From the NCBI GenBank assembly GCA_002788675.1, contig PFRS01000001.1, positions 106,204 through 170,203 on the forward strand: a stretch of 64,000 bases of DNA, read 5' to 3'. The position numbers and the translations under genes were made by a program. The notes under the pieces are model-generated. The model was given only the letters and a program-made list of their open reading frames with translations. It made no database searches and was not told where the DNA came from. Shown in pieces: positions 4,357-47,420 of this stretch (the first letter of the stretch is position 1; every line of letters begins with the position of its first letter). The DNA is from Candidatus Pacebacteria bacterium CG_4_9_14_0_2_um_filter_40_15. Its GTDB lineage: Bacteria > Patescibacteriota > Microgenomatia > UBA1400 > PJMF01.

Positions 4357-5433
4357 TTATTTGGGTGAAATTAGAACGGTTTTACCCGTTCCTTCAAGGT
4401 ATATGGGCTGCTCTTCAATTGTAATCGGACTGCCCTTTTTAAAGGTAACCTTCAGTAATAAACCGCGTCTCACGTTCTCTTCAAAGTACTGATCAAACAC
4501 AAAATTTCCTAAAGAATAGTACACAGGTACCCCATTAATACTCTCATGCTGTTGCACTACATGTGGGTGCGAACCAATGATAATATCTGCCCCAGCTGCA
4601 ACAAACTGACCAGCTAATGCCCTGTAGTACTCGCTGGCAATGGGTTGGTACTCAGTACCCCAATGGGTATAGACCACAACAAAATCTGGCTGCAAAGCAG
4701 CTTTTCTTCGAGTAAGTTCAGCAAGTAACTCATCAACGTCACCCCATAGAAACTGATTGTAGTTTACAAACAAGAACTTCATACCATTCTTTTCATATTC
4801 AACAAATGAATCATCCAGCCAAGAATCGCCACCCACACTTCCCCAGTGAGCCAGACCAGCTTGATTAAGTGTAGCTCGCGTCTGAGCCAAACCTTCTGCT
4901 CCAAAATTAAGAATGTGGTTATTTCCAAGATTGAGTAACACAAACCCTAAATCTTTAAGTACAGGTACAACTTCGGGACTAAAGGTAAAAATATAGTTAT
5001 TACTACTACCAACTGCAGAGCCAGAACTGATTGAGTCAAAATCGGTAATGGGACCTTCTAGGTTTGCAACAAAGCCATCAGCTGACTGTGAAAGCGTCTC
5101 AAAGCCCTCAAAAAGTTTGTCATACCCACCCATCACCGCTGCGCGCTGACGAATAAACCTATCAAACTGCAAATCACCACCAAAAACGAGCGTAACTTCT
5201 TGAGACTTAGGAACTTCTTGGGGGGGTACTGCTACAGCAGGTTCAACTTCCTGAAAAATTTCTTCTGGATCAGGTGTGACCAGTTCTTGATTACTTGTGT
5301 ATGCGGAATTAATTGTGAGCGCAATAGCGGTAATGATGACTGCTAGGAGTAGCCATTTTTTAGGTTCGCTAGAAGCTAATTTAGTGTGTAGCATTTCGTG
5401 AACAAGCATCACATATACCAAAAAGAGTGACAT
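4357..5433 (-). CDS. capA: CapA/PGA_cap family metallophosphatase (poly-gamma-glutamate capsule synthesis-like), N-terminally membrane anchored
   Basis: Motifs GGDLQFDR, LGNNH, THWGTEY and GSHPHVVQ are typical of the calcineurin-like CapA family. An alternative start near 5409 would reduce the overlap with zur. Confidence 0.7.
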   Translation of the reverse strand: MSLFLVYVMLVHEMLHTKLASSEPKKWLLLAVIITAIALTINSAYTSNQELVTPDPEEIFQEVEPAVAVPPQEVPKSQEVTLVFGGDLQFDRFIRQRAAVMGGYDKLFEGFETLSQSADGFVANLEGPITDFDSISSGSAVGSSNNYIFTFSPEVVPVLKDLGFVLLNLGNNHILNFGAEGLAQTRATLNQAGLAHWGSVGGDSWLDDSFVEYEKNGMKFLFVNYNQFLWGDVDELLAELTRRKAALQPDFVVVYTHWGTEYQPIASEYYRALAGQFVAAGADIIIGSHPHVVQQHESINGVPVYYSLGNFVFDQYFEENVRRGLLLKVTFKKGSPITIEEQPIYLEGTGKTVLISPK

Positions 5434-8650: not shown

Positions 8651-9505
8651 ATGCAAATCAAGAAAGCCCTCATCACCGCAGCTGGACTCGGTACACGATT
8701 CCTCCCAATCACAAAAACTCTTGAAAAAGAAATGCTGCCAGTCTACAACAAACCTGTTATCGACTACTTAATTGACGACTGTATTCATGGTGGCATCACA
8801 GAATTTGTTATTGTTGTTAATCACCGCAGTACTCAAATTCAGGATTACTACACTCAAAATCCTGGGATTGAAGCCGAACTCAACCGGCTAGGAAAGCATG
8901 CTGCAGTTAAGACTATTGAAAGATTGCATCAGAAAGCCACTATTACTTTTGTAGTTCAACAACCTGACCAAGGCTATGGAACAGCCGTTCCACTTAAAGT
9001 TGCAAAAAATCACTTGATTGATGAAGATGCCTTTCTAGTACTTATGGGAGACGATTTCTTGTATAACGGCGAAAAATTTAGTGAAGCTAACCTTATGATA
9101 GCCCACTTTAAAGAAGCTCACGCTGCAAATGCAGCAACTGGCTTAGTTACCTGTTTGGAACGACCTGAAGAAGATCTCTACAAATACGGTATTGCCAAAA
9201 TGCACACCGAAAAAGGTCTTCCCTACTTAGATGCACTGGTTGAAAAACCTGCTCCTGGGACTGCTCCATCAAATTTAGCCAACATTAGCAAATATATTTT
9301 TACCCCTAAAGTTTTTGAACTACTTGAAACTCAGACTATTAATTCTGAATCTGGTGAACTCTACATTACTGACACAGCCACCGCCCTAGCAGAAATTTCA
9401 CCGGTAACCATTTATACTCCACAAAGTGAGTACCTTGATTGTGGCACGCCGCAATCTTGGTTTCATGCGAACTCTGTGGTAGCAAAACACAAAGAACTTA
9501 GTTAA
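8651..9505 (+). CDS. galU: UTP-glucose-1-phosphate uridylyltransferase (copy 1)
   Basis: KALITAAGLGTRFLPITKTLEKEMLPVYNKPVIDYLIDDC matches the GalU N-terminal nucleotide-binding motif. The ORF track starts at 8600, but the MQIKKAL start at 8651 is the likely one. Confidence 0.75.
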   Translation: MQIKKALITAAGLGTRFLPITKTLEKEMLPVYNKPVIDYLIDDCIHGGITEFVIVVNHRSTQIQDYYTQNPGIEAELNRLGKHAAVKTIERLHQKATITFVVQQPDQGYGTAVPLKVAKNHLIDEDAFLVLMGDDFLYNGEKFSEANLMIAHFKEAHAANAATGLVTCLERPEEDLYKYGIAKMHTEKGLPYLDALVEKPAPGTAPSNLANISKYIFTPKVFELLETQTINSESGELYITDTATALAEISPVTIYTPQSEYLDCGTPQSWFHANSVVAKHKELS

Positions 9506-13495: not shown

Positions 13496-15166
13496 TTATG
13501 TTCGCCTAGAACCAATCCATTTTTTTAATAATGAAAGTTTGCTTTTCTGGGCTGCAACACGATCCTTCAGGCTTGCCGCTTTGTTTCGAGCCGAATCGAA
13601 CGCCATACCTCCCAAAACACGACCTACAACTTTACTACCAACTAAGGTATCTTTGAGATATTGTCCTGGTGACCGGCGTGGCGTCTCTGGCACTTCACCT
13701 TCTTTATTGTATGCATACAACTCAAAGGTATCGAGTGCTTTTTCAAACTCAATTTGTCCTTTATCAAGAATCTCATCGAGATTCACACCAACTGGACCTA
13801 ATAATCCTGGTATAGCAGCCTGACCATCATCTGGTTTTGCACATCTCCCAAAGAATGGCAAAATTGCTCGTAAGAATTGAATTTCGCGTTTACAAAATTG
13901 TGCCATCCGAGGGTCCTTTGAGTTTTTTAGTTCCTCAAATGCTTTGGCAATTTTGACTTCAATATTAGCTGACTTTGACTCGGGCGATTCTAAAAACGCC
14001 TTGAGCGCACCATTATATCCAGCTGCTCTCACAATTGCATGTTCAACCAGTTGGTCTAAACTTCTAATCTCTGAGGATTTCAAATCATCTTCTTTTGCTC
14101 GTTTTGCTGCAAAATCTATCAAATGAAACGTAGATTCTTCAATGGGAATATTATTTGGATGTAGCAGTGAATCCTCTGACAACTGTATTACCGTTTCTTT
14201 TGTGGAAATAGTATCGGGATCTACTTGCGCATCAACCTCTTCAGCATCATTCTCAGAAAAATATCTAAATTCATGATCAAACTCGAACTGAATCAGCGGT
14301 GGTTCAATTCCTAAAAAATGGGCAATCAAATCTGGCATACTCTCGTGCAGATACTGATGGTGAGTCGCCCACCGTCCGATATCATGCAGCAGCATGCGTA
14401 CCTTCATTCGATTCACATCAATCGTTCGATAGTTGCCATCTTCTTGCTTCAAGTAACCAAAAACTTTCGGTGGTAGTTCCTCACCATTCCGATTAGCAAG
14501 CTCAATTCGCTTATTAAGGGGAAGTACCATTTCCTCAACAAAAATTGGCGTAAAAAGCACATGCGTAATCAAACGATGATAGAAGTTTAATTCTTGAGGA
14601 GTGCCAGCGAATGTATCTGGGTTTTCATATCGTGCGACTTGATCCCACGCAGGATAACTATAGATCTGCGCATCTGCACCATACCCATACCTTTTCGCCA
14701 TGTCCCTTTCTCGCTGACGGACACTTTCGGGATATTTTTTCCACACTTCTTCAGGAACTGCCCCACCAAGTGGAGTAAGTCTGAGCACTAACTTTCGCAC
14801 TGCTTCAACCGTTTCATCCGAGACAAGGTGAATACCACCGGAGTCTAGAATATTTGTTTCGTCGAGGACTTTTTTGAGTTCAATTGCAATATATTCTGTC
14901 CGAGCTAAGACACGCAGGCACTCATCTTCACCATAGTATTTCAGGAGATCTCGACCTTCTGAGTCTTTGATTTTCCGTTTTTCTGAACCAGAAAAAATTT
15001 CTGGCAAATGGTCTTGAGAAGCTTTGAATGTTTCTTCAGGTGAAACACCATCCAGAAAAGTAAATGTCTCACGAACGTGCTCGCCAACAGCATGCTCTAC
15101 GGGGACATGTGCATCATCACCGCCAAAAAAATCTTCACCAATCTGGGTAATCTCATGATTATGCAT
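13496..15166 (-). CDS. Large HD-domain phosphohydrolase-like protein
   Basis: A 556 aa ORF with an H...HDIGRW HD motif. No other recognisable domains. Confidence 0.45.
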   Translation of the reverse strand: MHNHEITQIGEDFFGGDDAHVPVEHAVGEHVRETFTFLDGVSPEETFKASQDHLPEIFSGSEKRKIKDSEGRDLLKYYGEDECLRVLARTEYIAIELKKVLDETNILDSGGIHLVSDETVEAVRKLVLRLTPLGGAVPEEVWKKYPESVRQRERDMAKRYGYGADAQIYSYPAWDQVARYENPDTFAGTPQELNFYHRLITHVLFTPIFVEEMVLPLNKRIELANRNGEELPPKVFGYLKQEDGNYRTIDVNRMKVRMLLHDIGRWATHHQYLHESMPDLIAHFLGIEPPLIQFEFDHEFRYFSENDAEEVDAQVDPDTISTKETVIQLSEDSLLHPNNIPIEESTFHLIDFAAKRAKEDDLKSSEIRSLDQLVEHAIVRAAGYNGALKAFLESPESKSANIEVKIAKAFEELKNSKDPRMAQFCKREIQFLRAILPFFGRCAKPDDGQAAIPGLLGPVGVNLDEILDKGQIEFEKALDTFELYAYNKEGEVPETPRRSPGQYLKDTLVGSKVVGRVLGGMAFDSARNKAASLKDRVAAQKSKLSLLKKWIGSRRT

Positions 15167-38209: not shown

Positions 38210-38281
38210 AGGGCCGTAGTTCAGCGGTAGAATAGAGGTCTCCAAAACCTTTGACGGGGGTTCGATTCCCTTCGGCCCTGC
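38210..38281 (+). tRNA. trnW: tRNA-Trp (anticodon CCA)
   Basis: A cloverleaf with a perfect 7 bp acceptor stem, agggccg/cggccct, an anticodon loop ctCCAaa and a T-loop ttcgatt. Confidence 0.85.
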
Positions 38282-38333
38282 AGAATCCCATAGTATTCAT
38301 ACTATCTCCCTTTTCATATGATAAAATCAATAT

Positions 38334-38753
38334 ATGCAAAAAAAAGTAGATAAAGAATATTTAAATATTAGCTTTGTTGTTATTATTTTGGGCACACTTC
38401 TTCTGGGTGGTTACTATTTTAATAGCAAAAAGGTTGCGAGAATTATAAAAAACCCTGAAACAAAGATTTCTGACACAGAGTGGATATTCAATGAACCTAA
38501 AAATCTAGCAGTCTTTACAACGAAATCAATATTGAATTCTAAAGAAGACATTTTGTATGTAACACATGATTTTGATGATGGAGCTTGGCAATTTTTGCCT
38601 GGCTCTGTTGTTTCCACTGATGACAGCGCCATTATATCTTTAGAGGAGGCCGTAGCAATAGATCCAAGTATTCAAGAGCTGAATTTACTTCCTTTAGGTT
38701 CTAGTGCTCGAAGAGAATCAATCAATTCAAATTGGATCCTGTCTAACAACTAA
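38334..38753 (+). CDS. Hypothetical membrane-anchored protein (island cargo)
   Basis: A 139 aa ORF with an N-terminal transmembrane segment. Confidence 0.45.
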   Translation: MQKKVDKEYLNISFVVIILGTLLLGGYYFNSKKVARIIKNPETKISDTEWIFNEPKNLAVFTTKSILNSKEDILYVTHDFDDGAWQFLPGSVVSTDDSAIISLEEAVAIDPSIQELNLLPLGSSARRESINSNWILSNN

Positions 38754-38771
38754 AGCGTCAATTTCTTAGGC

Positions 38772-38806
38772 AGAAATAGGTTCTAACATCGTTCACTAGT
38801 CCCTGC
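38772..38806 (+). repeat. Island direct repeat, copy A (AAATAGGTTCTAACATCGTTCACTAGTCCCTGCAA)
   Basis: A near-identical roughly 33-35 bp sequence recurs after successive island genes. Its GGTTC...TTC...CCCTGCA core resembles the tRNA-Trp T-arm/acceptor 3' half. Confidence 0.7.
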
Positions 38807-38870
38807 AAAGTACACAACATAGCCTTCATTATCACTTGATAAATACTTTATTTAGCCTTATAATAACCTC

Positions 38871-39131
38871 ATGCAAACACAAACTACTCAAATTAGAGTC
38901 ACACTACCAGTGCAACTTCAAGGTTATTTACAGGCAAAAGCTAATAAATATGGACTTAGTCTGTCGGCCTACATCAGAAATTTAGTAATTAATGATGTTC
39001 AAGACGTTGAGCACCCTGTTTTTGAAATGTCTACTCAATCAGTTAATGATCTTCAGGAGGCTATTGCAGCCGAAAAAGCTGGAAAATTAGTTAGTACTGA
39101 TAATGTCAATCAGTTGCTCCAAGATTTGTAG
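38871..39131 (+). CDS. Ribbon-helix-helix antitoxin (RelB/ParD/CopG-like)
   Basis: An N-terminal RHH motif, IRVTLPVQLQGYLQAKANKYGLSLSAYIRNLV, in an 86 aa protein that sits 2 nt upstream of the toxin gene. Confidence 0.6.
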   Translation: MQTQTTQIRVTLPVQLQGYLQAKANKYGLSLSAYIRNLVINDVQDVEHPVFEMSTQSVNDLQEAIAAEKAGKLVSTDNVNQLLQDL

Positions 39132-39133
39132 CC

Positions 39134-39412
39134 ATGGAAATTTCGTTTTCCCCTAAATGTTTAAACCAATTGCAAAAGCTCAAGAAAGTAGATATCAAAT
39201 TGTTTACAAAAATCCAAAAGAAGTTAGCATTATTTGAGCAGAAATCAAATCATCCTTCATTACGGCTTCATAAGTTGAGCGGAGGACAAAGAGAAACCTG
39301 GAGTGTTTCTGTGGATATGTCATACCGACTACTCTTTTACTATAAACAAGATAAGAACCAGATGCAGGTTGTTTTTTTTAGTTTTGGAACTCATGATCAA
39401 GTGTATAAATAG
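39134..39412 (+). CDS. RelE/ParE-superfamily type II toxin
   Basis: A 92 aa protein whose HKLSGGQRETWSVSVDMSYRLLFYYKQDKNQMQVVFFSFGTHDQVY region matches the RelE/ParE core pattern (L.G....W..R....YR..Y.......i.vl.ig.H..Y). Confidence 0.65.
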   Translation: MEISFSPKCLNQLQKLKKVDIKLFTKIQKKLALFEQKSNHPSLRLHKLSGGQRETWSVSVDMSYRLLFYYKQDKNQMQVVFFSFGTHDQVYK

Positions 39413-39441
39413 GTTCTAACATCCTTCACTAGTCCCTGCAA
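39407..39441 (+). repeat. Island direct repeat, copy B
   Basis: taAATAGGTTCTAACATCCTTCACTAGTCCCTGCAA. The TAG inside the repeat is the toxin gene stop codon. Confidence 0.7.
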
Positions 39442-39446
39442 GATAG

Positions 39447-39474
39447 AAAACAACTCATTTGAGTTGTTTTTTTA
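39447..39474 (+). terminator. Intrinsic terminator after the toxin-antitoxin module
   Basis: A hairpin aacaactca-ttt-gagttgtt followed by ttttttt. Confidence 0.6.
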
Positions 39475-39584
39475 TCTTGAAGAATCGAGAGCGCATAACC
39501 CATGGTTCGCAATGCGAGTTATAAATAGTTCTTCCTCCAGTACGAGCATCTCACAGCACGCTCATCACAGATGAGTGTGCGAGA

Positions 39585-39603
39585 AGTCCCTCCGGCCCTG
39601 CAA
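39585..39603 (+). repeat. Near-exact copy of the tRNA-Trp 3' end (att-like core)
   Basis: AGTCCCTCCGGCCCTGCAA here matches the tRNA ATTCCCTTCGGCCCTGCAG at 16 of 18 positions. Confidence 0.6.
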
Positions 39604-39619
39604 AATATAAACTTCTGTA

Positions 39620-40027
39620 ATGAGCCAGAACAATGCTAAAATATCTTCTATGATGAAAATAATAAAAATCACACCTCTCTATTTCTCAGCCATATTCATG
39701 GCATCACTTCTAGTGAGTGGATGTACTACAAATAGTCCTAAAACTAACCCAACCACTCAAGAATACAATCTGCCTGTCGAAACGGAGGTTCAAGAAAATA
39801 TTGAAACTTCAATTGATACCGGTATGGTTGAATCGGATGCAACAGATTCTGGAACTGAGGTATCGCCAGAAAAAGTAGAAAATAGTTTTGAAGCATGTTC
39901 AAAAACCTACTATGACAGGTGTTATATTAATAACCCTAAAACAATAAATCAGCAACGATGTCTTGAGGGTATGAAAATAACAGTAAACATAAATTGCCCT
40001 GACACACCATATGGAACAAAGAAATAG
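39620..40027 (+). CDS. Small secreted lipoprotein (island cargo)
   Basis: A signal peptide with a LLVSGCTT lipobox, in a 135 aa Cys-containing protein. Confidence 0.5.
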   Translation: MSQNNAKISSMMKIIKITPLYFSAIFMASLLVSGCTTNSPKTNPTTQEYNLPVETEVQENIETSIDTGMVESDATDSGTEVSPEKVENSFEACSKTYYDRCYINNPKTINQQRCLEGMKITVNINCPDTPYGTKK

Positions 40028-40052
40028 GTTCAATTTATTCTTCCGCTACAGA
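40022..40052 (+). repeat. Island direct repeat, copy C (degenerate)
   Basis: AAATAGGTTCAATTTATTCTTCCGCTACAG. The stop codon TAG lies inside it. Confidence 0.45.
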
Positions 40053-40462
40053 AAACACCAGGGTTTCAAGCCTTGGGATGAATGGCAGTTGAGGCGAAAG
40101 CCGAAACTGCTATCTAGTATACTTGATGCATGACTAGAAAATATTGGACGGGAGCTCATACAACACATCGGTTGAGATTTCATATCGTACTTTTACCAAA
40201 ATATCGCAAATTTTAGGGACATATCAAAAGAAAAATTATTACATTTATTTGTGAAAAAAACGTATAGAAAATAGTGTGGGAAGATTTGGGACTGGTTGAC
40301 TACTCTACTGCCCCTCACTACAAATCAGATCACCCAGAATCAACATTTATTGATACATCTGTCGCCTATTTTGTAAAAAATAATATGCCGTTTAAGACTT
40401 TGCGAGATGGGGATGTTTTGATTTTGCAAGACTCTCAGTTAAAAAAGTAAGCATGCCTTTCA

Positions 40463-41065
40463 CTACTGCATAACTCGCTCAAAAAAAGAAATCGCAACAT
40501 CACTACTTTGCCTGGTGACCGCCGCGTACACGAATACACACATAAATATCAAATCAATAAATAAGCCAGCAATTGCATACGAAAACGTCACAAAAACAAT
40601 CCTCTTTACCCAAGGTGCAATCCACTGTCCAACTTTGTCGTACTTTCCTCTTAAAAAATAGACTATGTCGCTGACACCCGAGAGTGGTATTTGAAAAACA
40701 AAAAGTAAGTAGGCCAAGTTCCGAAACACTTTCCACCCCTCAATCAGATCTGGTCTAAAGTTGTAAGAACCAGAGTAAATGCTCGAGAGTCTAAAATGGA
40801 AAAAAATTGTTACCACAATCAGCGCTGGAGCAAAAAAGCCAGTTGCTTTCCCTAGTAAAAACCCAGGAAGTGTAAAAAATCGTTCTAAAGAAGCTTTACC
40901 ACTTTCTACTATAGATCGATTTTTATTAGCAGATTGTACCGTCAGGTACTCTCGATACTCAAGAAACTGTTTTTTTAACGAAAATGCTATCATGAATACT
41001 AGTATACCAGGGTTATAAAAAAATCTACCCGGAACAAAGGCCCGGCAGAGATCTAAATTATGCAC
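40463..41065 (-). CDS. Polytopic membrane protein, unknown function
   Basis: A 200 aa ORF with several hydrophobic helices. It is the only minus-strand gene in the island. Confidence 0.45.
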   Translation of the reverse strand: MHNLDLCRAFVPGRFFYNPGILVFMIAFSLKKQFLEYREYLTVQSANKNRSIVESGKASLERFFTLPGFLLGKATGFFAPALIVVTIFFHFRLSSIYSGSYNFRPDLIEGWKVFRNLAYLLFVFQIPLSGVSDIVYFLRGKYDKVGQWIAPWVKRIVFVTFSYAIAGLFIDLIFMCVFVYAAVTRQSSDVAISFFERVMQ

Positions 41066-41146
41066 ACCTTTCTGAAAAAACCTTACAAAAAAAAGATTAT
41101 TCTTGACTAGAATGATATACTATAGGTACTAAAAACAAATAGTTAT

Positions 41147-42022
41147 ATGAACACACAAGCAATTATCCGCGAAAATACACAAAGAACATACCTATACATG
41201 TTTCTTTTGATACTAATCCTTGGCACTATCGGACATGGTCTCTCTAGTTTTTTTGAAGTAGGGCTCACCGGAACAAGCACATTTATTATTACTTCTCTGC
41301 TTATAAACGTAGTTGCCTTCTTTTTTTCTGATAAAATCATTTTACGTACCGTCGGAGCAAAAAAATTAGACAAAACAGTTGCTCCAGACTTTGTAGAACT
41401 TGTTGCCAATCTGGCAAATAATCAGAATCTGCCCCAACCAAAACTCTACTACATGGATACTGATGCTATGAACGCGTTTGCCACTGGTAGAGATCAAAAA
41501 CATTCAGCAGTAGTAATCACCCGAGGATTACTCGAAAAAATGAAGCAAAATGAAGTTGAAGCAGTAGTTGCTCACGAACTTGCACACATCAAGTACCTTG
41601 ATGTTCGACTAATGACCATTGTTACCGTGCTTGCAGGGCTTCTTACTCTGCTATCTGATATGTTCTGGTACAGCAATGTTGCTCAAAAAGCATCTGAGAG
41701 AGATAACTCTGGCTCAGTACAGATGATTGGTATGGCCCTGGCACTTTTTGCTCCATTTACGGCACTCCTTATTCAAAATGCGATCTCTCGAAAAAGAGAA
41801 TATATTGCTGATGCGGCAGCATCAGACATGATTGGATCAAGTCACCCTCTTATCGAAGCACTCGAAAAGATCAGAAGAGATCAGATCCCTTTACCAGGAT
41901 CGCAGGCTGCAACAGCTCACTTGTTTTTCTCACAACCATCAAAAGATGGCTTTATTGAAAAGCTCTTCTCTACCCATCCTCCTCTAGAAGAACGTATTGA
42001 ACAGTTAAAGAAACTAGCTTGA
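41147..42022 (+). CDS. htpX: HtpX-like M48 zinc metalloprotease
   Basis: Transmembrane helices followed by the HExxH motif in VAHELAHIKYLD and a downstream glutamate (EYIADAAA). Confidence 0.75.
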   Translation: MNTQAIIRENTQRTYLYMFLLILILGTIGHGLSSFFEVGLTGTSTFIITSLLINVVAFFFSDKIILRTVGAKKLDKTVAPDFVELVANLANNQNLPQPKLYYMDTDAMNAFATGRDQKHSAVVITRGLLEKMKQNEVEAVVAHELAHIKYLDVRLMTIVTVLAGLLTLLSDMFWYSNVAQKASERDNSGSVQMIGMALALFAPFTALLIQNAISRKREYIADAAASDMIGSSHPLIEALEKIRRDQIPLPGSQAATAHLFFSQPSKDGFIEKLFSTHPPLEERIEQLKKLA

Positions 42023-42687
42023 AAGGGCATATGCCTAAAAAAGAAGCAGCAGTAAAAACTATACAAATGGGTAGCAAGGTTGAAGAAAAAGTCCCTTGCT
42101 CAGAATGCAAAAAAGAAGTTGGAGCCCAGGAGCGACATGTCTTCAAAGGAAAAAGTAATACTGATATCTATTATTGTGACAGTTGTGTAGAAAAAATTAA
42201 TGAAGCATTGGCAAATGAAACAAAAAATCCAAACATTATTAAAGCAGTGCTTGTCGGTGCAATGGCTGGATTCATCGGAACGATAGGATGGTATCTCTTT
42301 GTAATACTTACCCAATATCAAATTGGCTATATTGGCATCGCCCTTGGCTGGCTTATTGGTACAGCGTATGTCAAAGGTGCTGGCGAAAAACGTGGACACC
42401 AACTCCAGCTACTAGCTGCAATAACAACACTCATTTCCCTACTTGGAGCTGATTTATTCATTTTTACACATTTTAGTGCAGAATACTTTAATTCTGAATT
42501 TGGTATACAAGTTTCTAGCTTAGATATTATTCTGAGTTTCTTAGTTGATAATACTGAAGGTATGCGTTCACTATTTTTACAAGACTTTTTGTCTTCTGTA
42601 GCATCACCGATTGGATTACTTATCTGGGGAATTTCTATCTTCACTGCGTACAGCATTCCAAAGCCACGCGTGCTATCAACAAAATAG
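42019..42687 (+). CDS. Zinc-ribbon membrane protein, translationally coupled to htpX
   Basis: An N-terminal CSECKK...CDSC zinc ribbon and four or five transmembrane helices. The ATGA overlap with the htpX stop indicates translational coupling. Confidence 0.5.
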   Translation: MKGHMPKKEAAVKTIQMGSKVEEKVPCSECKKEVGAQERHVFKGKSNTDIYYCDSCVEKINEALANETKNPNIIKAVLVGAMAGFIGTIGWYLFVILTQYQIGYIGIALGWLIGTAYVKGAGEKRGHQLQLLAAITTLISLLGADLFIFTHFSAEYFNSEFGIQVSSLDIILSFLVDNTEGMRSLFLQDFLSSVASPIGLLIWGISIFTAYSIPKPRVLSTK

Positions 42688-42716
42688 GTTCGAACATCCT
42701 TCACTAATCACTGCAA
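42682..42716 (+). repeat. Island direct repeat, copy D
   Basis: AAAATAGGTTCGAACATCCTTCACTAATCACTGCAA. The stop TAG lies inside it. Confidence 0.65.
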
Positions 42717-42744
42717 AATCCTATAGTATAATTACTATATTTAC

Positions 42745-43386
42745 TTGATTTCTAGTACTACAGTAATAAGTATGAAAAAGAAAAACAAAATATCCTTATT
42801 AGTTCTACTAATTATTTCTTTGGTATCGATATCAACATATTTATTTTTTAATAGAGATAATACTAAGATAATAAACACAACAGTATCAAATTCAATTTAT
42901 AAAGAACATGATACTAGTTTTTCAATTCAATACCCAAAAATATGGACATATGTTTCATATTATTATGATACTCACATTAACTCAGGAAAAACTAAACGCA
43001 TTGCATTTAGACCCATAGATCTTGAATTAATTGATGAAGAGTATGGAACTATTTTGGTTAGTGAATTTACTAATGTAGAATAAAAAGATCTTTCAACATT
43101 TATAAGTAACTATTTTTGTTATGAACCAGGGAACTGTTTAGATATTGATAATTTCATTCCTCGATCAGTATCTAATTTACCTGCAGTATCAATTGAGAAT
43201 TTTGAAGGTCCACTTCCATCAGGAGACGTCGTGTTTATGGATGGAAATTCATTTTATATATTCTCAATAATATATGAAGGCAGTTATGACAAAGAAACTG
43301 GTGAATATGTGGGTAAATCAGAAGATGACATTGCTAATAAATTAGTATTCGAGGAAATGTTGTCTTCATTCATTAGAACAAAATAG
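42745..43386 (+). pseudogene. Secreted/membrane-anchored hypothetical gene interrupted by an in-frame TAA at 43081-43083
   Basis: The reading frame continues without a plausible restart for another 100 codons, ending at a TAG that is embedded in repeat copy E. The first part has an N-terminal transmembrane segment. Confidence 0.45.
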
Positions 43387-43414
43387 GTTCTAACTTCGTT
43401 CACTAGTCCCTGCA
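43381..43414 (+). repeat. Island direct repeat, copy E
   Basis: AAATAGGTTCTAACTTCGTTCACTAGTCCCTGCA. Confidence 0.7.
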
Positions 43415-43473
43415 TTTCCGTGATATATTTACTTAGAAATAAAATAAGTTGTTAATTATTACAGGAAGAAACT

Positions 43474-43791
43474 ATGAAACCCGAGGGAAATCCAATTAGT
43501 TCAGAGCAAGAGTATGTAAGTCAGAATTATCCAACTCTTAATTCTGCTGAATATGTTGTTGGATTTGAAGATGTACTTCCGATTTATTCAGCTCAAAAAT
43601 TTGGCGAAAAAATTGAAGTTAGTGGGCAAGGTATGAGTGGAGGTACATTCTATTTAAGTGATCACATGTTACCAGATCAATCCATTCCTGACGATTTTGT
43701 GGAAAATTTTCGTCAATATAAAGTAATTCAGCGTGTAGTAAAAGTGCAAGGAATTATGCGCTTTCATAAATATCGAATTGAAAAGGAATAG
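43474..43791 (+). CDS. Hypothetical protein (island cargo)
   Basis: A 105 aa ORF preceded by a GGAAG-type ribosome binding site. Confidence 0.45.
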   Translation: MKPEGNPISSEQEYVSQNYPTLNSAEYVVGFEDVLPIYSAQKFGEKIEVSGQGMSGGTFYLSDHMLPDQSIPDDFVENFRQYKVIQRVVKVQGIMRFHKYRIEKE

Positions 43792-43820
43792 GTTCAAATA
43801 TCTTTAAATTGTCCTATAAC
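43786..43820 (+). repeat. Island direct repeat, copy F (degenerate)
   Basis: GGAATAGGTTCAAATATCTTTAAATTGTCC, with the stop TAG inside. Confidence 0.4.
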
Positions 43821-43926
43821 TATTGATTTTTTACAAATTTCTCTATATAATACAATTGCCTTACTAATTAATAGCTCAATGAAGCATTGAATATATTAAT
43901 TAAATGTATAAGGCTGAGGCAGAGAA

Positions 43927-44007
43927 ATGAAAAAGCAAAGTCCAATCTTTTGGTGTTTTGTATTCATATTTTTCTTGAGTCTATGTATGCTTTTTTTGCC
44001 TGCATAG
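43927..44007 (+). CDS. Small hydrophobic peptide (26 aa)
   Basis: MKKQSPIFWCFVFIFFLSLCMLFLPA, followed by a hairpin at 44017-44044. Confidence 0.3.
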   Translation: MKKQSPIFWCFVFIFFLSLCMLFLPA

Positions 44008-44053
44008 ACTTATTTAGGGGCTAGAGATAGTACAATCTAGCCCCAATATTTTC

Positions 44054-44089
44054 AAAATAAGTTTTAACACGCTTCATTAGTCACTGCAA
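44054..44089 (+). repeat. Island direct repeat, copy G (degenerate)
   Basis: AAAATAAGTTTTAACACGCTTCATTAGTCACTGCAA. Confidence 0.5.
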
Positions 44090-44133
44090 TTACAACAAAA
44101 TGGTATACTCACTCTTAATTAAAGTGGGAAAGT

Positions 44134-44484
44134 ATGATTAAAAAGATTTTACAATTACTATTCTTTGTTCTCTCCCCATTTGCATCGCTCTTGTTTTTAA
44201 CTCCAATCACAATGATTCCTGCTGTTATGGTAGGTAAAATAGTAACTGCCAATGAGTGCGGGAATGCTGTGGGTGAAAGCCTCTGTGGTTTAGGAACAAT
44301 CGCACTGATAGTGTTTGGACTTAATGCCATTGTTGGCGTTATTGTTGTAATTTTATTACATTTAGAAATGAATAAGACATTCAGTTATAATAAGAAAGTT
44401 GCTAGCTCTTTAGTACTATTTACTTACTTTCTTATTGTCGCTGCAGCTTTTCTGTATTTTGTAGCAATTGATATATATACCTAA
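44134..44484 (+). CDS. Small polytopic membrane protein
   Basis: A 116 aa ORF with three hydrophobic helices. Confidence 0.45.
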   Translation: MIKKILQLLFFVLSPFASLLFLTPITMIPAVMVGKIVTANECGNAVGESLCGLGTIALIVFGLNAIVGVIVVILLHLEMNKTFSYNKKVASSLVLFTYFLIVAAAFLYFVAIDIYT

Positions 44485-44758
44485 GAAAACAAAATATAAA
44501 AGTTTGTTTGTGAAAAAGAGTATCTGAATCAAATCATGTTTTTAACGATGCAGTCTATTTAACTAGACTGATTCAGCTTAAGAACGTGTTAGAAGTTATC
44601 GACACAGCAAGAAATGGCATGCAGAATAACCCTTCACTTGAAACTGCTTGTCAAACGATATTGGGTATTGAGGGGGCAAGGCATGCTTTATCAGCTTTAT
44701 ATCCTTTGGGGGTTGGTCCCCTGAGTGATTATTTTGATATTCGTTGAAAACGTACTGT

Positions 44759-44795
44759 AAAAAGACTTTGGATTAATCCAGAGTCTTTTTTTTCT
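44759..44795. terminator. Bidirectional intrinsic terminator
   Basis: A hairpin agactttggatt/aatccagagtct flanked by aaaaa and tttttttt. Confidence 0.6.
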
Positions 44796-44819
44796 TTACT
44801 ACTCTGTAAAGAATTAACT

Positions 44820-45110
44820 TTAAACTAAAGTCGCAAGAATTCTTTTCAATTCAGTAACTTTTTCACTTGGCCCAGATACATTAAATCTGAACCTACTTGA
44901 ACGCGGAAATTCACGTTTGAAAGTTATTGCTAAACCATGTTCTTGAGCATAATCAGTTAACAATTGAATTGTCTCTGATCGCTTATTTCGAAGACCTTTT
45001 CCTTCTATAACAAAATCTTCTGTTCTTTCTGGTTTTATTAAATCTTCAATCCTAGCAGTTTGTTCCTCTAAAAATTGAGCAGCCTTTGCAGATAAATCAC
45101 CTTCTCTCAT
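44820..45110 (-). CDS. Hypothetical protein
   Basis: A 96 aa ORF. Confidence 0.4.
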   Translation of the reverse strand: MREGDLSAKAAQFLEEQTARIEDLIKPERTEDFVIEGKGLRNKRSETIQLLTDYAQEHGLAITFKREFPRSSRFRFNVSGPSEKVTELKRILATLV

Positions 45111-45398
45111 ACATTTTTCCTATCTAATTTATTTTAATTCTAACTCTATACTACCACGTACTGGAAAGTTTGCGGTAAATATAAATTTAAACGCCATACC
45201 GTTCCTCATGCTACAATCGCAAGTGCTCTAAAACTACTTATCTCGAATTTCTCACTCGTCATTCTTTAGACTTTTTTTAATCCCATAATATTTACTTTTT
45301 GTCTATTCCATGCTATAATTTCTCTGTCTCTATTCTGGCAGAATACAAATCATAGCGTTTTTTTTCTGCTAAATACGTGGAGACAAAGGAGAAACACT

Positions 45399-45494
45399 AT
45401 GTCCCGAGGAGTAGTATTACTTATTCTCTTTCTTATTTTCATTGGGCTAGTAGCCGCAACTTGGCTACTCACAAATATGTGGTGGCCCGCCTAA
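45399..45494 (+). CDS. Small hydrophobic peptide (31 aa) with a strong Shine-Dalgarno sequence
   Basis: AAGGAG lies 6 nt upstream of the ATG. The peptide is MSRGVVLLILFLIFIGLVAATWLLTNMWWPA. Confidence 0.4.
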   Translation: MSRGVVLLILFLIFIGLVAATWLLTNMWWPA

Positions 45495-45619
45495 ACAAAA
45501 AAGTCCTGAGCATGACTTCAAATAAAGGCTCACTTTTCCTTCAATACTGTGTACTAAAATGCTAAGCTTTCTTAGCTACACCTCATACTGCTGCAACTCT
45601 CCATGCTACAATCGTATGT

Positions 45620-46090
45620 ATGCAGAAACTACTTATCTCGGACTTTTCGCAGGTCCTTCTCTTCCCCAAGACAATTTCGTATTCTGGCTCACTCAACAAA
45701 CTCTACAATCAGGTAGTAGCCGAAAAACAGAACTTTGAAGATTTTTATATTCTTAATGAACCATTACTCACAGAGCTACAAAAATTAGAGGTAGAAAAAG
45801 TTATCTTTACTACTGGCACAGTTCAGAATGCCCCAGAAATTAGGAGCAAAGTACAGGCAGTCTTCAAAAAAATATTTACCGTGCCCATGATAGGAATCCA
45901 AAAAACTAACAGTGAGGCCTACACAAGAATTTGTGAAGAACTTAATACTGATCCGGCGAATGCACTCTTTATTGATGATACTCAGGCAAATGTCTCAGCA
46001 GCCCAGCAGGCAGGACTACAAGCAGTTGTCTACGAAAATAACGCTCAAATTCTAAGCGCAATTGAAAGTTGGATCCGCAATGATACATAA
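45620..46090 (+). CDS. HAD-like hydrolase (degenerate motif I)
   Basis: A C-terminal LFIDDTQANVSAAQQAGLQAVV HAD motif. The N-terminal motif I reads SDFS instead of DxDG. Confidence 0.5.
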   Translation: MQKLLISDFSQVLLFPKTISYSGSLNKLYNQVVAEKQNFEDFYILNEPLLTELQKLEVEKVIFTTGTVQNAPEIRSKVQAVFKKIFTVPMIGIQKTNSEAYTRICEELNTDPANALFIDDTQANVSAAQQAGLQAVVYENNAQILSAIESWIRNDT

Positions 46091-46505
46091 ATCTGTGGTT
46101 ACTGGCGTACTGGTCTCTAAAGATGACAAAGTTCTCTTGGTAAAAAAACCAGATGGTGTCGGTCCTTATGCCGGAATGTACCTAACCCCTGGCGGTGGTG
46201 TAAAGACAGGAGAACCAGCTGACAAAGCTGCACTTCGTGAACTCTATGAAGAAACTGGTGTTAACGTAACCGACTTACAGCGCCTAGGTTTTGATGACGC
46301 TGTCACTGCTAACTGGAAAGGCGTTGAGACCCACTACATCATGTTGCTGTATACAGCCAAGTATCTAGCTGGCGATCTGGCACCCACTGAAGGTGATGAT
46401 GATCACCTTGCAGTCATTAAATGGTTTTCTAAAGAAGAGCTACAGAAGTTACCACTCTCGCCTCCTCTTAAAAAACTACTACTTTCACTCGGATATCTGT
46501 CTTAG
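46080..46505 (+). CDS. NUDIX hydrolase
   Basis: Nudix box GGGVKTGEPADKAALRELYEETGV. Confidence 0.75.
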   Translation: MIHKSVVTGVLVSKDDKVLLVKKPDGVGPYAGMYLTPGGGVKTGEPADKAALRELYEETGVNVTDLQRLGFDDAVTANWKGVETHYIMLLYTAKYLAGDLAPTEGDDDHLAVIKWFSKEELQKLPLSPPLKKLLLSLGYLS

Positions 46506-46585
46506 TACTAGGTCCTAAAATTACGGGTGTATCTTTCAAAAAGCCAACTATTCCCAAAAGGGATGTACTATGCCTATAATGTGAT

Positions 46586-47056
46586 ATGATTTTACAACCA
46601 GAAACTCTTTCTCAAGATGTCTTAGCCTTCATGCGCAAAACCTCAATTATGTCAGCTGCCATTAATGGCGCTCCTCCTATTTCTACTGTGCTGCTCTTTA
46701 CAGTCGATGATGACTTCACAATGTATTTTGCTACCTTAGAAGGTAGCTATAAAGTACGTGGACTCCAAAAGGACGGTCAAATGTCGATTGCTATTTGGGA
46801 ACATCATGAGCTCTACTTACAGGGATCTGGCGTTGCGAGTATTGTTGCAGACCCAAACAAAGTAACCAAAATTGTTGATCGCCTCGCCGACTCTGCGGTA
46901 AATATTGCAGACTTTTGGCCACCAGTACTGCAAATAAAAGGTCATGACTATGTAGTCTTTGAGCTCAAACTGTCCTGGCTTCGAGCGCGTGACCTTTCAG
47001 ATACTACAATAGTAGAAAAGACAACAAAATTTATGGAGGTACCTCTAGATGAGTAA
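46586..47056 (+). CDS. Pyridoxamine 5'-phosphate oxidase-like FMN-binding protein
   Basis: A split-barrel family pattern of about 150 aa, with general-stress-protein-26-like motifs. Confidence 0.5.
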   Translation: MILQPETLSQDVLAFMRKTSIMSAAINGAPPISTVLLFTVDDDFTMYFATLEGSYKVRGLQKDGQMSIAIWEHHELYLQGSGVASIVADPNKVTKIVDRLADSAVNIADFWPPVLQIKGHDYVVFELKLSWLRARDLSDTTIVEKTTKFMEVPLDE

Positions 47057-47420
47057 AATTCTAATCGCCGAAGACGATCTTTTCCTAGGAAAAATTGCTG
47101 TCAAGAAACTAGAAAAAGAAAATTTTGAAGTCAACTTCTTAATATCAGGTGAAACTGTCCTTGAGCAAGCAAAGTTATTTAAACCAGATGCTATTGTTCT
47201 CGATCTTATCATGCCAGAAAAAGATGGGTTTGAGGCTCTAGTTGAACTCAAAAGTGAGAGTTTAACAAAGGACATTCCTGTTATTATTCTTACAGCATTA
47301 AGTTCACCCGAAGATCAAGAAAAAGTTAAAAAAATTGGGGCTGAACACTTTTTCATTAAGTCTGATATAGAACTTTCTGATCTTACTGCTTACTTACATA
47401 AGCTAGTTGATACTAAATAG
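47049..47420 (+). CDS. Stand-alone response-regulator receiver domain
   Basis: ILIAEDD, a phospho-acceptor Asp in VLDLIMP and ILTA...K motifs. There is no output domain. Confidence 0.75.
   Translation: MSKILIAEDDLFLGKIAVKKLEKENFEVNFLISGETVLEQAKLFKPDAIVLDLIMPEKDGFEALVELKSESLTKDIPVIILTALSSPEDQEKVKKIGAEHFFIKSDIELSDLTAYLHKLVDTK

Follow-up and report, generated by a model that had tools for sequence, protein, structure and literature searches.

The tRNA-Trp(CCA) gene at 38210..38281 on the + strand (ARAGORN; 65.7 bits with the Rfam tRNA model) of a 64,000-nucleotide stretch from Candidatus Pacebacteria bacterium CG_4_9_14_0_2_um_filter_40_15 (contig PFRS01000001.1), here called the window, is followed by an array of short direct repeats that separate small genes. 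The array had been pointed out in an earlier note made from the letters of the window, and its presence was confirmed with ARAGORN, Rfam and a position-weight-matrix (PWM) scan. The repeat, AAATAGGTTCnAACnTCnTTCACTAgTCcCTGCAA, is composed of a 22-nt core, TAGGTTCnAACnTCnTTCACTA, and a tail that reproduces the final 6-10 nt of the upstream tRNA gene. The whole site is about 31 bp long (31-35 bp) and is placed at the 3' end of a cassette. Of the seven direct copies reported, all lie on the + strand and 3' of the tRNA-Trp gene, and five are good, one is degenerate and one is truncated. The good copies (scores in PWM bits) are found at 38774..38808 (copy 1; no mismatch to the 35-mer, 52 bits; core at 38777-38798, tail GTCCCTGCAA), 39407..39441 (copy 2; 1 mismatch, 52.6 bits), 42682..42716 (copy 4; tail ATCACTGCAA, 47.9 bits), 43381..43415 (copy 5; 2 mismatches, 49.4 bits) and 44055..44089 (copy 7; 40 bits), the last being somewhat degenerate and the most distant from the tRNA. 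Copy 3 (40022-40033) retains only the first 12 nt, AAATAGGTTCAA (18 bits), and copy 6 (43786..43820) is degenerate, with 32 bits and 8 mismatches to the class consensus. No matches to the 35-mer such as those at 38774, 39407 and 43381 are expected by chance, and no further copy is present on either strand of the 64 kb, in which the top PWM score outside the listed copies is 6 bits. Across 38-46 kb the GC content drops from ~0.41 to 0.32-0.38. The population was assembled independently by NCBI (GCA_002790935.1), ENA and JGI with identical gene order, which indicates that the array is not an assembly artefact.

A copy of the repeat was thought to follow each gene, which is not so: the units between the window copies hold 1 to 4 genes each. 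Cassette 1 carries a gene (38334..38753, +) for a 139-aa protein with an N-terminal membrane helix and a weak match to Imm33. Cassette 2 (38836..39412, +) consists of a promoter-like site (38836-38864; 11 of 12 matches in a consensus scan) and a toxin-antitoxin pair, namely a ribbon-helix-helix (RHH) antitoxin (38871-39131; NikA-like RHH match in Pfam) and a RelE/YafQ toxin (39134-39412; 29.0 bits with RelE_StbE TIGR02385, curated cutoff 27.9, and HigB/ParE-like in Pfam). A lipoprotein-like gene of 135 aa (39620..40033, +) is found in cassette 3. Unit 4 contains an HtpX-type M48 protease (41147-42022, +; Peptidase_M48, E = 2e-34), an open reading frame (ORF) for a zinc-ribbon membrane protein (42019-42687, +) and, on the - strand, a 200-aa membrane protein without family match (40463..41065). 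The RelE/RHH pair and the HtpX protease with its zinc-ribbon partner had been named as cargo from the letters and were found again in the analysis. In unit 5 two ORFs on the + strand, 42745-43083 (112 aa, N-terminal membrane helix) and 43231-43386 (51 aa), may be a single gene split in two. Cassette 6 carries a 105-aa gene (43474..43791, +), and the unit before copy 7 has a promoter-like site (43823-43851) followed by a tiny ORF and a hairpin. At five of the seven window copies the upstream ORF stops at an in-frame TAG within the repeat: the toxin of cassette 2 ends at the TAG of copy 2, and the lipoprotein-like gene, the zinc-ribbon protein, the 51-aa ORF and the 105-aa gene end at those of the truncated copy 3 and of copies 4, 5 and 6, respectively.

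It had been proposed that the repeat resembles the 3' half of the adjacent tRNA-Trp. Within the window alone this likeness is weak; it is limited to CCCTGCA and GGTTC (P = 0.03 for the whole repeat and 0.28 for the core), and the fit to the T arm (GGTTCnA, TTCnC... and the acceptor end) needs a 5-6-nt insertion after the first of these elements. The likeness is significant, because the tail covaries with the tRNA across genomes. The pattern TAGGTTCNAACNTCNTTCACTA, for which ~4 matches are expected by chance from its 19 fixed bases, was scanned against one genome per bacterial and archaeal species (596 Gb). This gave 40 stretches, all in Patescibacteria genomes, and a metagenome scan added 108 further stretches. 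Together they contain 223 distinct copies at 149 loci, essentially all of them patescibacterial, and in 148 of the 149 loci the copies are all on a single strand. On contigs of 320 kb to 1.08 Mb the exact matches are confined to a single locus each; the 7 reported for the 1.08-Mb contig all lie in two adjoining 8-kb stretches at 840-856 kb. Eight of the records, L006, L017, L020, L023, L024, L037, L038 and L039/L044 (L numbers denote loci), carry GenBank titles of Pseudomonadales or Gammaproteobacteria. Their flanking genes are patescibacterial wherever comparable (e.g. 87% identity between L017 and the window), and these labels look wrong, because the tRNA neighbourhoods and flanking proteins match those of Patescibacteria loci.

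In all loci the 22-nt core is constant, with 3 free positions, and the tail that follows varies. The tail gtCCCTGCA (74 copies) matches tRNA-Trp, tCCCGCtC (43 copies, and 6 more with aGGCGCTCA) matches tRNA-Gly, GCTCACCca (45 copies) tRNA-His and cgCGGAGCc (11 copies) tRNA-Asn; other tails (44 copies) match tRNA-Arg in single cases. Each of these tails corresponds to the final bases of the closest tRNA gene that lies upstream on its strand, together with 1-3 bases of flank. A common word of at least 6 nt was shared by 34 of 57 non-redundant pairs of tail and tRNA, as against an average of 2.7 pairs, and never more than 7, when tails were paired with tRNAs of another type in 1000 permutations. 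Class A arrays with a tRNA within reach lie directly 3' of tRNA-Trp and on its strand in at least 10 unrelated Patescibacteria. The notion of att sites tied to a tRNA 3' end was thereby borne out, since the tail changes with the adjacent tRNA (Trp, Gly, His, Asn or Arg). The core is not specific for tRNA-Trp, and one core serves several tRNAs. To judge from the alignment given above it is possibly a mimic of the T arm, which would explain this versatility. The proposed target in the window, comparable to an attB or attI site, would be the last bases of tRNA-Trp and their flank, CCCTGCA(g), at 38276-38282. A solo site, representing a cassette that is minimal or has been emptied, is found at L040 (~4686-4785), where tRNA-Gly is followed after 27 nt by core and tail and cargo is missing.

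The arrays are unidirectional and begin at the tRNA. The longest has at least 13 copies over 14.4 kb after tRNA-Trp on the 1.08-Mb contig of HK-STAS-PATE-15 (two contiguous loci), and arrays with 5-8 copies are present at L031, L022/L112, L132, L125 and L078. At the empty site L011 the end of tRNA-Trp, ...GGCCCTGCAA (shorter form ...CCCTGCAA), is directly followed by a module that we call terminator-X. At the occupied site L039 three cassettes are located between the tRNA and terminator-X, which resumes right after the third ...GTCCCTGCAA (shorter form ...CCCTGCAA). The window is laid out like L039, with two cassettes and then terminator-X at 39447-39606. The boundaries of a cassette are apparent from a toxin-antitoxin cassette common to four genomes: homology starts after the upstream tail and extends through the promoter, the genes and the downstream core and tail, and the same genomes cannot be aligned before the upstream core or directly past the downstream tail. 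Toxin-antitoxin cassettes homologous to cassette 2 of the window are present in 6-7 other arrays. Cassette proteins are 90-98% identical between species, compared with ~50-58% for the flanking 440-470-aa core protein across array-bearing genomes (e.g. L027 against the others). L023, the locus closest to the window in its flanking genes (flanking proteins 72-78% identical), has no cassette in common with it. Cassettes are shared horizontally between species. In addition, the farther a copy ranks from the tRNA, the more mismatches its site has (10 arrays with 49 copies; Spearman 0.52, P = 1.5e-4; 0, 0, 1, 0, 8 and 6 by rank in the window), as expected if new cassettes enter at the tRNA. The length of the arrays, the boundaries at the tails, the sharing between distant genomes, the decay away from the tRNA and the lack of a linked integrase gene uphold the view of the earlier note that this is a cassette array rather than a single island.

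It is probable, although by no means certain, that the locus represents an accretion array of small cassettes without an integrase, serially inserted at the extreme 3' end of tRNA-Trp by site-specific recombination. For the recombination chemistry, the circular intermediate and the enzyme, we infer the following. The 22-bp core would be the part bound by the recombinase, and the tail of 6-10 bp, identical to the end of the tRNA gene, would be the region of strand exchange (overlap). A free, presumably circular, cassette would recombine with the tRNA end and become the new cassette beside the tRNA; the insertion would rebuild the tRNA end, and the older cassettes would be displaced outward, where their sites decay. 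The enzyme would have to act in trans, because it is not encoded in or beside the array. Such a system would work like an integron, with the tRNA end as attI and the core plus tail as attC. The interpretation given in the earlier note is supported overall, the mechanism that we infer being site-specific insertion at the tRNA end by an enzyme supplied in trans.

Several observations weigh against this interpretation. Variation between strains in the number or order of units, for which the earlier note had proposed a comparison, was absent from the population: the exact RelE and HtpX proteins were looked up in turn, and in the 24 contigs read for each of them the gene order never differed. A free or circular cassette was not found, and the core was unmatched in viral contigs, plasmids and phages. 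A phmmer search of the window ORFs of at least 60 codons with six seeds (XerD, IntI1, lambda Int, Cre, Tn3 resolvase and IS608 TnpA) revealed neither a tyrosine or serine recombinase, in agreement with what had been noticed from the letters, nor an intact Y1 transposase. Dyad symmetry is missing from the site, and the left ends of cassettes lack a conserved partner sequence, which is unusual for a classical tyrosine-recombinase core. Finally, the copies of the Gly class contain a conserved ORF on the reverse strand, described below, for which cassette accretion does not account.

The fixation of the array within the population and the lack of a recombinase linked to the ~150 loci would suit an explanation in which the tRNA gene and the 31-bp repeats anchor ordinary homologous recombination after uptake of DNA, so that cassettes are exchanged and gained with no dedicated recombinase, and in which the tails are relics of old integrase events. 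Some Patescibacteria are naturally competent, and between distant genomes conservation is limited to the repeats and the tRNA. However, the joining of one core to the tails of five tRNAs, the exact insertion at the tRNA end and the polarity of the decay are all left unaccounted for, and a length of 31 bp, 3 positions of which are free, is marginal if diverged genomes are to exchange DNA through RecA. This explanation is regarded as unlikely.

The tails themselves are informative about insertion. At L027, L088 and L142 the left part of the tail stays GTCCCTG, although the resident tRNA reads GGGCCTG or AGGCCTG, and the cassette tail and the resident tRNA have only ~CCTGCA in common. A left tail that remains cassette-like fits a crossover within a 6-7-bp overlap carried with the cassette, and argues against target-site duplication. 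Such a duplication, or a target motif, is what the tail would be if the core were the right end of a tRNA-targeting transposon (DDE, Tn7-like or HUH) and the arrays were nested or one-ended non-autonomous insertions. The one-sided conserved end of 22 bp, the fixed orientation and the 6-10-nt target repeat are compatible with a transposon, and IS200/IS605 remnants adjoin two copies (at 40130-40267 in the window and at L129). Yet a conserved left end, an inverted repeat and a hairpin are all lacking, and the tails of the three loci differ from the resident tRNA where a fresh duplication would copy it. The only Y1 enzymes in the loci are the intact one of L129 and the decayed fragment in the window, in a search that did not extend to DDE, Tn7-like and other HUH families. 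A transposon end is accordingly held to be quite improbable.

The remnant in the window belongs to debris that interrupts copy 3 (40058..40450, +; identified by translation). This comprises a hairpin resembling the left end of IS200/IS605 (40058-40076, +), the N-terminal part of a TnpA that has decayed and contains two stops (40130-40267, +; E = 1e-4 in BLASTP with the intact L129 TnpA) and a C-terminal fragment that resembles peptidase S51 (40274-40450, +; E = 0.0085). Pfam and PDB searches with the 40130-40267 fragment did not recognise a Y1 transposase. It was rejected as the recombinase of the array, as it is a decayed insertion whose homology to TnpA is supported only by the pairwise BLASTP comparison with L129.

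The same six seeds gave only two matches in the ~850 kb of related loci, namely a tyrosine integrase in L114/L156 and the IS200-type TnpA of L129, which sits just past one core. Of the repeat and its cognate integrase, both of which the earlier note had suggested looking for in related genomes, the repeat was thus found at 149 loci and the integrase was not found. The L114/L156 tyrosine integrase has many homologues in the Candidate Phyla Radiation, and one paralogue is located in a multi-integrase island. In L156 a perfect direct repeat of 92 nt (9349-9440 and 13606-13697), made up of the 3' part of tRNA-Arg and the 5' part of tRNA-Lys to GGTTC, encloses a 4.3-kb element with the tyrosine integrase, AbiEi/AbiEii and two core-bearing cassettes. 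The 20-kb locus has cores on both strands. As the cognate enzyme this integrase was rejected, since in L156 it is part of a classical 92-nt-repeat element that crosses over near the T loop and contains the cores as cargo. A 438-aa protein beside tRNA-Trp in several genomes was also considered and rejected, as it had no significant family or structure match and does not always adjoin the array; by eye its motifs look like those of a GT-B glycosyltransferase. In L158 (contig Ga0209976_10000006, 18.5-39.5 kb) a defence-type island adjoins tRNA-Phe and tRNA-Gly and contains three tyrosine recombinases, a DNA methyltransferase, an AAA_15/21 ATPase, a TIR protein and Bro-N; elsewhere in this genome, arrays of the core are located at tRNA-His and tRNA-Arg.

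Neither strand of the site folds (the minimum free energy of the single-stranded DNA, 0 to -1.1 kcal/mol, does not improve on that of shuffles), and an inverted partner is missing from the window, so that it is not an attC site, a repetitive extragenic palindromic (REP) element or a terminator. These readings, as well as that of a DNA-uptake sequence, were ruled out by the lack of a fold together with the occurrence at a single locus, which also answers the concern that the repeat could be a generic genome-wide REP or terminator element. A dif-like site was ruled out by the lack of symmetry; by inspection, the resemblance to a XerD arm is limited to ATGTTA.AA on the reverse strand, which lacks a symmetric partner.

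Read on its reverse strand the core is GTG AAY GAC GTT AGA ACC TAT, that is V(N/K)DVRTY, and this frame is open through the tail in all classes. In the Gly-class copies a conserved ORF of 20-31 codons (commonly 28) begins in the core, MNDVRTY[FW]x6F[FY]IPSLSLEAAKIN*, which shows period-3 variation and in-frame indels and is conserved at the protein level in dozens of loci. Examples are found on the strand opposite the tRNA in L025 (5059-5143), L091 (525-611), L055 and L069. The Trp-class copies retain its first 8 codons only. These features would be expected if the core were the remnant of an opposite-strand gene, e.g. a recombinase gene spanning its own att site as in the archaeal SSV-type 'partitioned' integrases, and if its conservation were that of a protein. 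But among more than 220 copies the reverse ORF is nearly always shorter than 40 codons; the longest, of 125 codons, is in the window, where a real gene occupies the other strand. The idea that the peptide is the beginning of a long gene was therefore rejected. Moreover, no N- or C-terminal partner is present beside the tRNA, where + strand cargo genes start within 30-120 nt, and not every one of the core's three free positions falls on the third base of a codon. A scan of viral contigs with the peptide yielded nothing related. An origin from such a gene is considered very improbable.

Many cassettes appear to have their own promoter, as judged from consensus scans only; the toxin-antitoxin cassette common to four genomes carries TTGACA-17-TAAAAT. 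In addition, the hexamer TTCACT of the core is followed after 16-17 nt by a TATAAT-like -10 box in 21 of 216 junctions (~10%), which is ~4 times the frequency at other offsets, and this combination may be a junction promoter for the next cassette. A promoter-like site of this kind is present in the window at 42700-42727, where TTCACT of copy 4 is followed by TATAGT 16 nt downstream. Stop codons also coincide with the site: the first triplet of the core terminates 27 of 58 upstream ORFs that have 50 codons or more. Of the 33 that reach the core these 27 stop there, and 5 and 1 stop in the remaining two frames. Such a bias would be explained by selection against C-terminal extensions, a precise joining mechanism being a possible alternative. 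The stop codons, the occasional -10 boxes and the terminator hairpins that often follow the repeat would also suit an element acting in regulation or at the RNA level after accessory genes (3' untranslated region signal, terminator, insulator, REP-like element or junction promoter). Such a role gives no reason why the tail copies the adjacent tRNA, and it is at odds with the lack of secondary structure and of an Rfam match and with the restriction of the repeat to one locus per genome, where a regulatory element would follow genes generally. It was given hardly any probability.

The systems closest to the array are integrons, together with CALINs (attC clusters without an integrase), and accretion islands at tRNA genes, and it belongs to neither, because the features that define them were tested for and are missing from it. 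The integron-style description in the earlier note held for the architecture. As in integrons, a unidirectional array is formed by cassettes of 1-2 genes that each end in a recombination site, insertion would take place at a fixed proximal site with the older cassettes distal, and the cassette pool is common to several species; as in CALINs, an adjacent integrase is absent. Integron cargo is rich in toxin-antitoxin genes, GNAT acetyltransferases, glyoxalases and methyltransferases, and the cassette cargo resembles that of chromosomal integrons: the 96 non-redundant cassette ORFs across the loci include Fic/DOC (5), YafQ/RelE (5), methyltransferases (3), GNAT (3) and glyoxalase (2), and small kinases also occur among them. 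The description did not hold for the integron itself. Whereas attC sites are hairpins of 55-140 bp conserved in structure only, the site described here is 31-35 bp long, unstructured and conserved in sequence across phyla. It is anchored at the 3' end of a tRNA gene and not at an attI beside intI, the gene for IntI that adjoins the array of an integron is missing, the window having no match to the IntI1, XerD, lambda Int and Cre seeds, and its tail is matched to the target. In place of the R'' (RYYYAAC) and R' (GTTRRRY) boxes of attC the base before AAC is any of four, and instead of promoterless cassettes served by a common Pc many cassettes seem to possess promoters.

With the accretion islands (genomic islands, the tycheposons of Prochlorococcus (10.1101/2020.12.28.424599) and cis-mobilizable elements (CIMEs)) the array has in common the proposed integration at a tRNA 3' end that would be rebuilt, the proposed outward displacement of older elements by newcomers with partial tRNA repeats between the units, and units bounded by a sequence that directly repeats the tRNA's 3' portion on the same strand and 3' of it. 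CIMEs, which keep att sites and have lost the integrase, are degenerate remnants with cargo; only their non-autonomous status is compatible with the array. Classical examples of such accretion are the tRNA-end copy at 39587-39606, described below, and the element of L156 with its 92-nt repeats. The units described here, in contrast, are of 0.4-2.7 kb and none in the examined arrays has its own integrase; their repeat consists mostly of a 22-bp core that is not derived from tRNA, with only 6-10 nt of tRNA, and the same core is used at several tRNAs throughout the superphylum. Xer-dependent pdif modules and IMEXs (integrating mobile elements exploiting Xer) are likewise small, lack a recombinase and depend on short conserved sites and an enzyme encoded elsewhere, but dif-like sites have 28 bp, with dyad-symmetric XerC/XerD arms around a 6-bp spacer, and alternate in orientation, whereas the core lacks dyad symmetry and all copies are direct. 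REP/BIME elements and intrinsic terminators are palindromic and occur genome-wide, unlike the unfolded single-locus repeat. IS200/IS605 elements and their palindrome-associated derivatives carry a subterminal hairpin at each end, which the core lacks, and depend on a Y1 TnpA encoded within the element or supplied in trans. In SSV-type integration int(N) and int(C) fragments flank the element and overlap the att sites, but here no partner fragment is located on the tRNA side.

Full-text literature searches yielded no earlier description of such arrays in Patescibacteria. These bacteria (the Candidate Phyla Radiation) account for much of the diversity of bacteria and have tiny genomes (~1 Mb), and how they acquire accessory genes is poorly understood. 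We tentatively suggest, at somewhat less than an even chance, that they possess a gene-capture platform of their own, analogous to the integron and unrelated to it, in which tRNA 3' ends serve as docks, the core is universal, the tail sets the tRNA and the recombinase is encoded elsewhere or on mobile elements. If so, the platform would be one of the main ways in which genes are exchanged within the superphylum, and a second, independent case of the integron 'design', with a different site and anchored at tRNA genes. The 22-bp signature is easily searched for and would offer a simple means to map the flexible gene pool of the group, which covers toxins, defence genes and surface proteins that are likely relevant to host-attached life. 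It would also provide a defined DNA substrate for finding the recombinase, and possibly a natural docking site for adding genes to the few culturable members.

The terminator-X module of the window (39447..39606, +) consists of a terminator hairpin (39447-39474), a conserved non-coding segment 'X' and, at 39587-39606, the sequence TCCCTCCGGCCCTGCAAAAT, which repeats the 3' end of tRNA-Trp and agrees with 38267-38286 at 18 of 20 positions. This better copy of the tRNA end, a longer attachment-site remnant of a second kind, had been overlooked in the earlier note. Across genomes the layout is that of a hairpin, ~125-190 nt of X and a 16-20-nt copy of the tRNA-Trp 3' end beginning in the T loop. 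The module lies directly 3' of tRNA-Trp in L011 (4770-4995) and after core copies in L039 (3175-3368), L044, L030 and L013. At gathering or E-value thresholds Rfam contained no family matching the repeats or the X segment. The 39587-39606 copy and the X arm are probably the scar of a classical integrase element that targeted the T loop, and on this reading two integration layers coexist at this tRNA-Trp. With regard to the surroundings, L010, L011, L017 and L027 have the order tRNA-Thr-Tyr-Thr, L33, the 440-470-aa protein on the opposite strand, tRNA-Trp and the array. Relative to these loci the block at 38210-47420 of the window, which runs from tRNA-Trp and the array to the HAD, NUDIX, PNPOx and response-regulator genes, is apparently inverted.

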